The translations under genes were made by a program, and so were the position numbers. This document shows, in pieces, positions 8,835 to 20,398 of a stretch of DNA of 64,000 nt. The notes below the pieces were generated by a model. It had not been told where the DNA came from, did not search any database, and worked only from the letters and a program-made list of their open reading frames with translations. The first letter of the stretch is position 1, and each line of letters begins with the position of its first letter. The stretch comes from Eledone cirrhosa (Eukaryota), in assembly GCA_964016885.1 (NCBI GenBank), contig OZ024743.1:271250001-271314000 (forward strand), read 5' to 3'.

Positions 8835-10265
8835 ATGTTGTGTTCAGACACTGATTGTTCAACGGACACATTCCTGATTGGACACAGTTACAGTTATAAT
8901 TTTGCGAAGTTATATAATTTTTGCGTTGTTGTATAAAACACTTTCCAGCATCACATAAATATAATAAAATCTTAAACCCTAACACTATTCGACTTTCATA
9001 TTCAACCGCCCCTAATATTGAACAACATATAAAAAAGCTTAACGCAAAACGATTGTATAAACGCCTTCCAACACATAACAATACACGTAAAACATCGGCT
9101 ATAACATCACAAAACAACAAACAACATCCCGTCCTACCTAAGCAACCTCATCAACCCATCCATGCCAATACAACAACGCAAAATTATAACTGTAACTGTG
9201 TCCAACCAGGAATGTGTCCGTTGAACAATCAGTGTCTTGAACACAACATCATATACAAATGTACTATCGAATCGGATAGCCAGAAGTGGTACTATGTGGG
9301 GTCTACAGCTACCTCCTTCAAATCTCGCCTTTATAGACATCGTTACTCGATAAAACATGAAAACCAGCGTTATGTAACAACACTCGCAGACAAGGCTTAG
9401 CAGCTGCGCGAAAATAACCAACAATTTAACCTAAAATGGGATATAATAGTGGCTGCCCCTGCATACCCCCACGGACAGGAATTTTGTAAATTGTGTAATA
9501 TGGAATTATTTTGTATTATGAAATCCAAAAATATTTTATTAAATAACAGAATAGAGCGATCGTTATACTGTAACCATCGCTTGAAATCTACATTTTCATA
9601 TAAACACTACCAGGATTGAACGCCTGTCTCCATCTCCGTTTGATTGTCAAAATACATATTAACATTCTCTATTAGTCTTAATTCTATCAACTCTTCTATT
9701 CTTTACCATTTAATATAAACTGCTATAGATAAAATGAGATTTCTTAATTCAATTACCTAATGCATATACCAGCAGGCTACCAGCATTGTTGTTATTCAGT
9801 AGCAGTGAAAATCTCCCTCTTCCTTAATTGACACTTTATATCTATTAATACTACTACACCAAACGACCAGCCCTGTCCATTGTTCAATTGGTCAAGTATA
9901 GATTAAAATAGGCACTCCCAAAAATTCTTATTTAGATAAAATAAACCATATACTCATTGTATTCTCATTAGAAACCTTTTATATACTTGTTTACCAATAA
10001 ATTGAATTGCCATCTGTCATATACTATCCCCTCTCTTCTTCCTTTCTTACAACTAATATAAATACTTCAATTTTTTTGATTTCTTCCAATTTATCCAATA
10101 TCTCTGAAGAAGTGACAACTGATTATACATTTGCTATCGAATACTTGCTAACATTATATGATTACGCAAGCAGCGATACATAGGTATTCCGTCTGTTACA
10201 GAAACATATGTCAATACCTAATAAATTCCTTTATAAAAGCACTTTCATTTTATATTCATCTTTTC
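8835..10265 (+). mobile_element. Penelope-like element PLE-1 (Neptune-type linker), 5'-truncated: GIY-YIG endonuclease, 3' UTR and a short inverted copy at 8835-8910
   Basis: ORF 8921-9400: KHFPASHKYNKILN..IRLSYS, CNC-X5-CPL-X3-C, IIYKC..YYVGST..FKSRLYRH; continues past a stop to CKLC..E..LLN.R.E..CNHR; flanked by (TA)n. Confidence 0.9.
10098..10220 (+). ncRNA. Hammerhead ribozyme (type I) in the PLE-1 terminus
   Basis: CTGAAGA 10104-10110; stem II GTGACA/TGTTAC; GAAA; palindromic stem III ACATATGT; GUC site; stem I weak. Confidence 0.65.
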
Positions 10266-10499
10266 TATATATATATATATATATATATATATATATATAT
10301 ATATATATTTATATATATATATATATATATATATATATATATATATATATTTATATATATATATATATATATATATTTATATATATATATATATATATAT
10401 ATATATATATATATATATTTATATATATATATATATATATTTATATATATATATATATATATATATATATATATATATATATATATATATATTTATAGT

Positions 10500-11490
10500 T
10501 AGAAAAATATAAAAACAATCTCTTCTCAACATATATATGTATATTAATAACCTCAAATTACCACACTAATAATGGTAAGATAAGCTGATGAGAATAGGTG
10601 CAAAAATGCGATAATGAATGTGTCTAAAAGCGACCATAAGTATGTATATATATGTGAAAATTTATATAAATAAGTAAATATATATATATATGTTTGATGT
10701 GTATAGTTAGATGTAAGTGTATTCATGTATTAAAGTGCTTATATATATATGTATATATATATATATATAGATATAGATATATATGTATATGTATATATAT
10801 ACACATAGACTAGGGTATGTATGTATATATGTGTGTGTCTATACGTGTGTATATAAAGATAAGTTGAGTATAAAAATGTATACACATGAACGCGTATGTA
10901 TGTACATGAATACATGTGTGTATACATATATATGTATGCATGTGTATGTGTATGTAAGTATGAACATGTTACTATGTGAATGTGAGTATATGTATTTTGT
11001 AGAGGTGTGCAAATATGTTTGTGTGTGAATGCGTGGGTGAAAGGATACGTACACTTGAAAGAAAAATTTAAGTCTGAATGTTAATTAAGTGCAAACACAA
11101 AACCAACCACGCATATCTTTACTATCTCTAATCCTTCTATAGATTTAGAAAAATAACCAATAATATATTCTATAAAAATGTCAAAACAACAGATGGGAAT
11201 CTAATTACTCACTACCACCAAAAATTCTCACTGCTATCAAAAAACCACTCCCTCAACTATTCTTCTAACAACTTCACCCCTCCCTCCTAATATTCTCTAT
11301 AAAAACCAAACAGGTCCTCAGTAATATTATTCTGATGAAATGACAGTAAATAATAACATTGAAATATTGAATGTCTGCATAACTAATACTTTGTAGATAG
11401 CAGCTGTTTTCAGGTTATGTAACTGTTATAGAAACACGTGTCAATAAATTCCTTTCAACTAAACCGTATCCATTCAAATCTTTCTATATT
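10500..11490 (+). mobile_element. Non-coding 3' portion of a PLE related to PLE-1
   Basis: Flanked by (TA)n, internal TG/TA microsatellite, ends in a hammerhead and AATAAATTCCTTT tail similar to PLE-1. Confidence 0.6.
11327..11447 (+). ncRNA. Hammerhead ribozyme (type I, expanded stem II)
   Basis: Stem I TTATT/AATAA; CTGATGA 11332-11338; stem II ATGACAGT/ACTGTTAT; GAAA 11431-11434; palindromic stem III ACACGTGT; GUC site at 11440-11442. Confidence 0.8.
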
Positions 11491-17263: not shown

Positions 17264-20256
17264 ATATATATATATATATATTCTCATATCATACATACAT
17301 AGATACATATTTACTCATGCAATTACGGGTGGTTGTGTACCTTGATGCCTTTAGTCATTAACACATAAACCTAAGGAAGCTAAAGAATTAAAAGGTAAGA
17401 AATAAGCATGAATGCGTATAATTAGGGGAAAGGGATACTAACAAATGTTACGCTACACAGAATTATAGTGAGTTGTTATTTAGAATATTTAACTAGGTTT
17501 ATAGTATTTAAATGTTTTTCGTATACGGTGATTACAAACTATGATCAGTTCCTGTCTTTTATTCAATAAATCGTCCTTAGATTTAGTAATTTCCAAGATC
17601 TCCCCTGAACATAACCTGCATTCTCTCCTGTTCCAAAGATATGGAATCCTTTGTAGAATGGTGTTCCACGATAGCTTGACATCTATTTTTTTCTTTTTAT
17701 AGTTATTTACAGCTTCAGCTAAAGATGTGGTGTTAGCTAGTTTAGTATTGTTAAAACTACTAGAGTGTGCGTAATATCTTTTCTTAAATGTGTTCGATGT
17801 AGATCCTATATATGTTTTGTTGGAGTCCTTTATATGTTTTGTTGGCTCTATACTCAAAAACTTAGTATATAACATATCTCTTAAACTTTCTAAATTATCT
17901 TCTAATGAGGATATATTTTATAATAATGCACCCTTCTACAACGAAGCCCTAACTAGAAGTGGATATAAAGAAAAAATTTCATATATTCCCAACACTACTA
18001 TGGACCAAAATATAAAACCTAGCAAAAACTACAAACACCAAAAAATACCATCGAAACAAATACCAAATGGGGTTATTCCTAACACACCAAACAACCGAAA
18101 AACCACAACAACTATTACTACACGATCTATGACCAATGTTAACAACTCACATATGACTACCAAACATTCAACCTCTCATAATCTATCCAATAATTGTTTC
18201 TACTTTAGGCACAAGGCCAGCAATCTATCCAATAATAACACCAAATACAACCACGGTAGTTTACCAAATTCCACAAATACAGATACCAACCATAAGAACT
18301 CTTCTAGAACACAGTAAATTAATATAAGTGGTAATAAGAACTTAACTAAAAACCGCAAAAGAAACATAACATGGTACAACGCACCCTTCAACCTGCAAAC
18401 TATTGGACAAATCCCCCAAAAATTCTTCGAAATTCTACATAAACATTTTCCACCAAACCACAGATACCACCAAATATTTAACAGGTATACTGTTAAATTC
18501 TCATACTCTACATCAAACAATCTCCAGCAAAAAATAAGCAACTACAACATTTATAAATTTAAAAATAATATGACTACACCACCACAACATAATTTAAATA
18601 GGACTGCACCTTTTAAAAGGACAAATAATACAATCCTTCAACCTGGAAAACACAACCACACAAAAACAACATAGAACAAAATCACAATACAACCCTAGCA
18701 CTAAACCACCCACAAAGCAACCTTCATTCTCCCGTTAACATTAATTACAATAAGAATAGCTCAAGGATTAATGAGAACTGTATAGGTACCCCCAACAACC
18801 ATCTTACGTATGGTTGTAATTGCAGAAATAGAAGCATTTGTCCCTTAAATGGCAACTGTTTGATTAATAATGTAATATATAAATGCACTGTGTCTACTAC
18901 TGACTCCAACAAAACATATATAGGATCTACATCGAACACATTTAAGAAAAGATATTACGCACACTCTAGTAGTTTTAACAATACTAAACTAGCTAACACC
19001 ACATCTTTAGCTGAAGCAGTAAATAACTATAAAAAGAAAAAAATAGATATCAAGCTATCGTGGAACACCATTCTACAAAGGACTCCATATCTTGGGAACA
19101 GGGGAGAATGCAGGTTATGTTCAGGGGAGATCTTGGAAATTACTAAATCTAAGGACGATTTATTGAATAAAAGACAGGAACTGATTATAGTTTGTAATCA
19201 CCGTATACGAAAAACATTTAAATACTATAAACCTAATTAAATATTCTAAATAACAACTCATTATAATTCTGTGTAGCGTAACATGTGTTAGTATCCCTTG
19301 CCCCTAATTATACGCATTCATGCTTATTTCTTACCTTTTAATTTTTTAGCTTCCTTAGATTTATGTGTTAATGACTAAAGGCATCAAAGTACACAACCAC
19401 CCGTAATTGCATGAGTAAATATGTATCTATGTATGTATGATATGAGAATATATATATGTGTGTGTGTATATATGTATATGCGTGTATATGTGTATGAGTG
19501 TTTATGTGTGTGTGTACATGTATGTGTATGTACATATATGTATGTGTGTATAGGTGTGTATATGTGTATATATATATATTTATATATATATATGATTGTG
19601 TGCACATATGTAGATGTATGTATATGTTTACATCTATTTATGTGTATGTATGTTTTTAATTGAGTATCAATATAACTATACCTCTATCTACAATGTGGGT
19701 ATATGCACTTTGTGATATATAAAATTTATGCGTTTTCACAATATGTCAACATGCATTTATTTGAGTTTGATTACTTCTACATGGACATACTTGAAAGTAT
19801 TTTAAGTTGTATCATACGCTGTATTATACTATGTACAATGTATCACACCGTACTATATTGTGTTACATTATATTATATTATTGTATTACTATATTTCATT
19901 ATGTTATTATCTTTTAATATACTATCTTTCCTGGTCATGACCATAATTTATATTCACCTAAAAACTCCATACAACACAACTCAACATTTAATTTTTACAT
20001 TCCTTTTAAACCTCACTATACCATATACATTCAACATTCAATATGACAATCCTCTTTTTCCTCATAGGTTCTTTATAGCAATTCTATTGTTAACACCATT
20101 CAACCATTCCTTTCAAAGGGTCATGACCTCAACTAAAGTGAATTATTTTTCATCTTAACATCATATGGAAAAAAAACAATCTGATTGGTTTGTTCTTCTG
20201 CTACCTCCAAATAAGGTCATAGAACTCAATTTACTACTAATTTTGAATAAAATTCT

Positions 20257-20398
20257 CATTACTTTTGACAACAGTTGGTGATATACATGTAAGTAAATAT
20301 TTTCCTTATCTGATATTTTGTAACTAACCTTACATAGATCGATAACGAAGTATGGTTACGATGTATTATCATCACCTAGAAACGATCGTAAAGCAGTG
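20257..20398 (+). ncRNA. Hammerhead ribozyme with U3-A8 variant core (PLE-2 3' end)
   Basis: CATTACTT-TTGACAA-C-AGTTGGTGATA ... TATCATCACCT-A-GAAACGATCGTA-AAGCAGTG. Confidence 0.7.

Follow-up and report, generated by a model that had tools for sequence, protein, structure and literature searches.

Penelope-like elements (PLEs) carry hammerhead ribozyme motifs which cleave poorly alone, and one of them needs its protein. The minimal hammerhead ribozymes (min-HHRs) of PLEs can have an extra base after A9 and a U3-A8 core, and the descriptor published for them permits extra N10 and N11 and restricts loop 2 to 3-10 nt (Cervera and De la Pena 2014, PMC4209133). In the motif list of Craig et al. 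(2021, File S2, PMC8557442) the positions 10.1-11.1 are closed by U.U in most motifs of the Hydra clade and by C.A in PLE-X1_cBra, and the longest loops, of about 30-35 nt, belong to two spike-moss PLE-X elements; U.U closure was also reported by Perreault (2011, PMC3088659). The hammerhead of an anole PLE cleaves only with its protein, and it is uncut RNA that serves as template (Frangieh et al. 2024, PMC11167929). Here we analyze a window of 64,000 nt from Eledone cirrhosa (assembly GCA_964016885.1, contig OZ024743.1, positions 271,250,001 to 271,314,000 of the forward strand; coordinates below are those of the window). In this window type I hammerhead motifs end three PLE families which we assign to the Hydra clade (A, B, and D) and one non-coding tandem unit (C), and their stem II is a covarying hairpin of 50-107 nt. 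With a probability of roughly 0.6 we take these motifs to be slow cutters which act as dimers and cleave after GUH, with the stem II arm serving as a binding site that helps folding.

A relaxed hammerhead descriptor which required a stem I of at least 3 bp gave six matches over the entire window, both strands included, namely B, two copies of C, two copies of D, and a short motif at 34170-34199. A chance origin is ruled out, since of 200 shuffled windows (block-wise, by dinucleotide) only one contained a match, and that a single one (mean 0.005). Motif A was detected only when the stem I requirement was dropped, and with it all six motifs of the original prediction were recovered at their places with the anatomy foreseen for them, as type I PLE motifs whose stem III is palindromic and whose stem II is long. 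The core boxes follow the type I order (C3UGANG8A or U3..A8, GAAA, UH), and three helices surround the core in B, C, and D. Hammerhead A (10099-10216, plus strand) has its core at 10104-10110, an A.A at 10111/10200, a 90-nt stem II arm, the palindrome ACAUAUGU at 10204-10211, and a GUC with the predicted cut after C10212. In hammerhead B (11327-11447, plus strand) the core at 11332-11338 is followed by an A.A at 11339/11430 enclosing a 92-nt arm, stem I has 5 bp, the palindrome ACACGUGU lies at 11434-11441 and the GUC at 11440-11442, and the predicted cut falls after C11442. Hammerhead C (12447-12529, plus strand; core 12453-12459, C.A at 12460/12509, 50-nt arm, stem I of 6 bp) carries the palindrome ACUAAUUAGU at 12513-12522 and a GUU, with the predicted cut after U12523. 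Hammerhead D (20257-20398, plus strand) has the U3-A8 core UUGACAA at 20265-20271, a C.A at 20272/20378, a 107-nt arm, the palindrome ACGAUCGU at 20382-20389, and a GUA with the predicted cut after A20390. The second copies of C (motif 11617-11699, descriptor match 11623-11693) and of D (motif 15066-15207, descriptor match 15074-15199), both on the minus strand, are not separate insertions; each pair represents the direct and the inverted half of a single one. Stem I of D comprises 3 bp in the direct and 9 bp in the inverted copy. All four arms fold better than shuffled sequences (z of -2.7 for A, -3.3 for B, -2.0 for C, and -2.9 for D).

The common layout which had been predicted (core, N.A, long stem II, GAAA, palindrome, and GUH) is thus present, but stem I of A appears defective throughout its family. 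It can be drawn with one direct pair or with four A-U pairs and a bulged C, and its pair probability is 0. The extra base responsible is fixed, as two bases occupy this spot in each of the 100 matches listed (of 635 in the genome) and a single base in none of them; the weak stem I is therefore not due to decay of the copy in the window. The short hammerhead at 34170-34199 (minus strand), absent from the original prediction, is a fifth kind with a U3-A8 core, G10.1-C11.1, a 13-nt stem II, an ACCGGU palindrome, and GUA, and its family also occurs in loci L055 and L080.

We searched the genome (3.0 Gb) with patterns that required only the core, the spacing, and GAAAC-N4-GT, and used the reversed patterns as controls. 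Arms of 41-71 nt gave 5,476 matches with A at 11.1 (322 reversed) and 11,256 with C or U (941 reversed), and arms of 72-101 nt with any base at this position gave 22,428 (1,312 reversed). The long-arm total is about 39,000 against about 2,600 in the reversed controls, some of the matches being chance or coding sequence, and the sums exclude G at 11.1 in the 41-71-nt class, 8-nt centres, and U3-A8 cores. Short arms of 9-31 nt with A at 11.1 gave 4,851 matches (861 reversed). A count for UUGANAA cores with long arms (14,798 vs 4,075) was dropped as the list is dominated by one coding-like repeat; two of its 30 loci, relatives of D, were kept. The perfect palindrome, not required by the pattern, was found in 27 of the first 30 loci of the 72-101-nt class and in 13 of 30 and 11 of 20 first loci of the other samples, and at least four of six stem II pairs were present in 26 of 30, 24 of 30, and 16 of 20 loci of the same three samples. 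A metagenome scan covering 6 of 64 parts yielded 117 loci, not one of which satisfied two of the three structure tests or contained a Hydra-type open reading frame (ORF).

For the analysis of covariation 122 long matches in 57 clusters were used unfiltered for stems, including 40 places chosen by eye as distinct families and the two loci from the UUGANAA list, and the 3' arms were permuted among the clusters. Stem II covaries (p = 0.0002 for pairs 2, 3, 5, and 6, 0.013 for pair 4, and 0.029 for pair 7), and so do stem I (p ≤ 0.0006 for pairs 1-4; 0.055 for pair 5) and both free pairs of stem III (p = 0.0002). Pairing is thus kept between clusters while the sequence differs, as the original prediction had it. 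No covariation was detected at 10.1-11.1 among the 57 clusters (paired in 47% vs 37% permuted, p = 0.063). Within the families A to D covariation says little, since the top copies are 95-100% alike. H17 is G in three clusters and another base in 54. Of 10 aligned homologues four have C3-G8 and six U3-A8, corresponding to one lineage change.

The arms of A and B can be aligned with each other, and we collected 21 arms, 70-92 nt in length, of A, B, and relatives in a MAFFT alignment (A1), which is not structure-aware. It has invariant inner columns. The arms form a hairpin with two loops, 5'-ANU-3' opposite 5'-AG-3', which lie 11-12 nt apart and have covarying pairs next to them (C-G in 9 arms and U-A in 12; G-C in 14 and A-U in 4; G-C in 9, A-U in 5, and U-A in 4). 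With a structure drawn by hand from the very sequences on which it was counted, 87.6% of the arm cells are paired, vs 76.3% in shuffled and 34-40% in slid arms; RNAalifold predicted no consensus pair on A1. The G.U wobbles in the arm favour RNA of this strand. In the window the loops are found in the arm of A (10129-10183, plus strand; AUU 10129-10131 opposite AG 10182-10183 and AAU 10140-10142 opposite AG 10172-10173), twice in that of B (11358/11412 and 11370/11399), and once in that of D (20315/20336), and one also occurs in the C3-G8 sister family of D and in a large group with 58-63 nt. Altogether ANU/AG is present in 20 of the 57 clusters against 6.8 in shuffles (maximum 13) and is the best of 256 letter choices, though chosen post hoc. 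Two families left out of the arm model have both loops and score 45-49 bits against it. Many families therefore keep a covarying arm hairpin with ANU/AG loops, and the arm is not filler. Another conserved internal loop without ANU/AG was seen in L145, L150, L165-L170, L231, and L235, which have 48-59-nt arms and a ACCAUGGU stem III and for which we found no host element.

How could such motifs work? Stem III alone has 2-3 bp and is weak, two copies give 8-10 bp, and the dimer fold lies 12-15 kcal/mol below two monomer hammerhead folds. Tandem or read-through transcripts would place two copies together, whose palindromic stem III of 8-10 nt would pair and form the dimer. The cut would detach each unit both from its successor and from the AAUAAA signal usually located 3' of the site, and inserted copies would derive almost exclusively from uncut RNA. 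The inserted copies do span the cut site, and from this and the anole parallel we read the motifs as slow, dimer- and probably protein-dependent cutters. The arm is likely a binding site, its partner being most likely the element's own protein or else, through a direct contact, stem I. Family A would then be a probably weak or dead cutter that is still spreading. In 28 of 57 clusters the 25 nt that follow the predicted cut contain AATAAA or ATTAAA, compared with 3 and 2 for control windows; in A it lies at 10221-10226 and in B at 11443-11448. A cut would separate the ORF from this possible poly(A) signal. In A, an arm stretch of 8 nt (10180-10187) is complementary to 10213-10220 after the cut, and this pairing forms the best predicted fold of A. 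A similar match of 8 bp covering the cut site was seen by eye in family L199. In these two families the pairing is possibly an off state.

Several observations weigh against this interpretation. In every motif the dimer hammerhead is less stable than the free cofold, by 1.4-14 kcal/mol, and in the best predicted fold of A the site is buried and stem II disrupted (pair probability 0.03 for stem II and 0 for stem I), though family A is young and numerous. Two C copies begin exactly at the cut site and one at a control four bases off; without an excess there is no trace of cut templates in the genome. In the anole element the protein-binding region lies mostly downstream of the cut, and cleavage is dispensable for insertion in vitro (PMC11167929), and eight of nine retrozyme dimers from Xenopus showed no cleavage in vitro. 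As to the arm, the 21 rows of A1 were chosen by eye out of 25, and the ANU/AG loop is absent from the arm of C and from 37 of the 57 clusters. The permutation p values are optimistic and overstate independence because the clusters are related. We put forward only tentatively, and with more doubt than confidence, a more specific version, in which the Hydra-clade PLEs of this genome would have turned stem II into a separate, conserved RNA domain. This long hairpin, with a single ANU/AG loop or with two spaced by 11-12 nt on the same face of the helix, would dock the element's possibly dimeric reverse transcriptase (RT)-endonuclease and gate dimer cleavage. If true, this would be a natural protein-gated hammerhead with tens of thousands of copies that is invisible to current descriptors.

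The closing position 10.1-11.1 had been central to the original prediction, which proposed one lineage-wide subclass defined jointly by a long stem II and N.A closure. The N.A does sit at this position, as stated there, because sister families carry G-C in the same register. We also considered N.A as two insertions flanking an intact G10.1-C11.1, which fits A and C by eye; this is ruled out as G-C, A-U, U.U, and A.A share one register in sister families, and N.A is therefore a substitution. All four window families have N.A, and in an unconstrained sample of the 72-101-nt class N.A was found in 22 of 30 and G-C in none, so that the longest arms tend toward pair loss. The 41-71-nt class, however, is richer in pyrimidine than in A at 11.1 by the counts given above. 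Sister families changed among G-C, G.U, A-U, U.U, A.A, C.A, and U.A, and closures vary even inside single clusters (G.U, U.U, and A.A in one). The first members of the 57 clusters comprise 10 G-C, 9 A.A, 6 each of U.A, C.A, G.U, and U.U, and 14 others, in a sample stratified by the 11.1 base whose counts are not genome frequencies. Moreover, N.A also closes short stems (A.A or U.A), U.U was seen in an axolotl family, and C.A and U.U are in print (PMC8557442). A joint subclass is thus highly improbable: the mismatch was already known, closure is free among long-arm families, and the long structured arm is the defining feature and the one that searches overlook. An abundant family of short hammerheads at L176-L180 has A.A closure, a 4-bp stem II, and, by eye, a 3-bp non-palindromic stem III.

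Two other explanations concern the arm and the core themselves. The arm might belong to the tertiary structure of the ribozyme itself, with internal loops that dock on stem I and offset the lost 10.1-11.1 pair, no protein being involved. Where bases of loop II are conserved, they usually serve in a loop I-II contact (PMC6155905, PMC3088659), the longest class lacks G-C at the closing position, and the arm of A has its 8-nt stretch complementary to bases past the cut site. But the distance from loop to core is not fixed, amounting to 13-15, 17-33, or 38-43 nt depending on the family, and alignment A1 contains no matching conserved loop in stem I, which makes us regard this explanation as unlikely. 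The core could instead be a folded handle for assembly of the ribonucleoprotein or for transcript end formation which cuts rarely or never, the hammerhead being half vestigial. This would accommodate the spread of family A despite its defective stem I, the lack of a pile-up of copies at the cut site, the insertion of the anole element without cleavage in vitro (PMC11167929), and the low in vitro rates of PLE hammerheads (PMC4209133). Yet core boxes, a non-G H17, the 3-8 swap, and the palindrome, all of which catalysis needs, are kept across families whose endonucleases are 34-37% identical, and we consider a mere handle improbable. Slow cleavage by dimers with a fold-helping arm is the reading we retain.

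Each motif belongs to a young repeat family with at least 40 copies at 95-100% identity (40 scored among 772-1,453 candidates per family). The (TA)n-rich repeats of the genome and the similarity to Hydra-1_Obim fit a cephalopod. Family A (8932-10267, plus strand) is a 5'-truncated element with the end of an ORF encoding a linker and a GIY-YIG endonuclease and with a 3' untranslated region (UTR); this copy has one in-frame stop and (TA)n at its end. Family B (10496-11491, plus strand) is represented by the 3' UTR/pseudo-long terminal repeat (pLTR) of an element related to A, and the ORF lies upstream in the copies L001 and L027 and downstream in tandem in L030 and L203. B DNA is also present in four contig runs of unknown kind. 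The direct copy of family D (17775-20459, plus strand) is 5'-truncated with a GIY-YIG ORF piece at 18629-19240 and a 3' UTR, and the inverted copy (14860-17827, minus strand), which has a tail, is in pieces, interrupted at about 16081-17263 by a fragment resembling a long interspersed nuclear element (LINE). The hammerhead lies 500 nt (A), about 900 nt (B), and about 1,030 nt (D) behind the C-terminal GIY-YIG domain.

A C-terminal GIY-YIG, a CxCx5C linker, and CxxC..E..N..CxH were found in A, B, and D, and these marks of the Hydra clade are described in Craig et al. (2021, PMC8557442). Pfam gave GIY-YIG at E 0.003 for D, below the cut-off, and no match for A. The B ORF (L030) carries RVRWK, ADKT, and YRDD in its RT region; of A and D the C-terminal parts were examined. 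The copies show (TA)n insertion, pLTR, inverted 5' halves, tandem ORF restarts, and a tail. We assign A, B, and D to the Hydra clade by these sequence marks and by a comparison with reference sequences by eye. The four motifs had been described as distinct, and their sequences do differ, but A and B are related, their endonuclease ends being 61% identical over 200 residues; D is 34-37% identical to both. A tree of endonucleases from this genome comprised four or five families only, too few for mapping closures. An upstream Hydra-type endonuclease was present in 8 of the 57 clusters and a tandem ORF start in one more (9 of 57). In loci L001-L120 each family shows two classes of 3' end, counted in nt after the cut (A about +53/+162, B +42/+155, C +58/+175, D +53/+191), and tails of about 110-140 nt, which exceed the 30-40 bp of Fig. 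2 in Craig et al. (PMC8557442).

That all four termini are Penelope-like had also been proposed, and this holds for the three in the 3' UTR/pLTR of A, B, and D, but C ends a non-coding unit. Its direct copy (12055-12717, plus strand) consists of a 525-527-nt non-coding tandem unit plus tail inserted in (TA)n, a piece of the tail being repeated at 12715-12851, and its inverted copy (11558-12056, minus strand) is a non-coding unit with the hammerhead at 11617-11699. In the 3-kb locus L075 three units with one hammerhead each follow 526-527 nt apart. The longest reading frame in the unit has 76 aa, the ends are of the same kind as those of A, B, and D, and relatives at 68-80% identity keep C.A or U.A and a covarying stem II. 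By its sequence C is a non-autonomous, retrozyme-like element. Elsewhere the window contains a long 13/15/28-nt tandem array from about 21684, a perfect palindrome with 286-nt arms at 45610-46171, and several fragments of one LINE-like RT family (5328-6787, 13959-14645, 16293-17009, and 31250-32173).

With respect to existing models, Rfam gave no hammerhead match at the gathering score in the window, and no hammerhead family was among 65 matches at E ≤ 10 between 8500 and 21000. Standard searches thus miss these motifs as anticipated, although not on account of N.A: the long arms are hidden from the published 2014 descriptor because its loop 2 is limited to 10 nt. The missing Rfam match is a limit of the models and not a defining biological feature. 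Short-loop descriptors can therefore miss tens of thousands of ribozyme motifs in one genome. These motifs constitute a large natural set in which core and palindrome are fixed, closing pair and arm vary, and a conserved loop can be mutated, so that models of protein help and of dimer action become directly testable. Our literature search, whose scope did not extend to Lunse et al. (2017) and Arkhipova et al. (2017), found no paper on long-arm PLE hammerheads; according to Craig et al. (PMC8557442) Arkhipova et al. used relaxed descriptors with longer loops, which may include long-loop cases. We also asked whether the Naiad 'half cores' are the same motif and rejected this, as the Craig supplement, whose line breaks may mask matches, contained none of six short stem III words of our motifs, and the cephalopod Naiad ends examined differ in layout (PMC8557442). 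At the Naiad_Ovul end stems I and III can be drawn by eye in the permuted order cut site, GAAA, CUGAUGA, with stem II unpaired.

Compared with the min-HHRs of PLEs (Cervera and De la Pena 2014, PMC4209133), the motifs described here share the type I fold in the pLTR, the palindromic stem III, the unpaired base after A9 with extra N10/N11, the U3-A8 variant, and the dimer model. They differ in having 50-107 nt between core and GAAA instead of a stem II of 3-7 bp with a 3-10-nt loop, in a free closing pair where G10.1-C11.1 is highly conserved in min-HHRs, and in stem III palindromes of 8-10 nt. With the Hydra-clade hammerheads of Craig et al. (2021, PMC8557442) they have in common the clade, the 3' position, the (TA)n targets, and the frequent 10.1-11.1 mismatch, whereas all Hydra motifs in File S2, including the octopus Hydra-1_oBim, have 3-10-nt loops, and they are not known to have a conserved arm module. 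Family C resembles the non-LTR retrozymes (Cervera and De la Pena 2020, PMC7229834; Li et al. 2026, 10.64898/2026.07.22.740005) in that its non-coding units stand in tandem, each with one type I hammerhead, and in its PLE-like ends; its 527 nt exceed the 170-400 nt of the former study and fall within the 51-972 range of the latter, and its 50-nt stem II arm sets it apart. The anole Poseidon PAc element (Frangieh et al. 2024, PMC11167929) likewise has its hammerhead upstream of two reverse-transcription start sites and an uncut template, but it belongs to another clade, is not known to have a long arm, and was assayed for cleavage, which needs the protein. What appears new relative to all these systems is the long structured stem II arm with a conserved loop module in PLE hammerheads.

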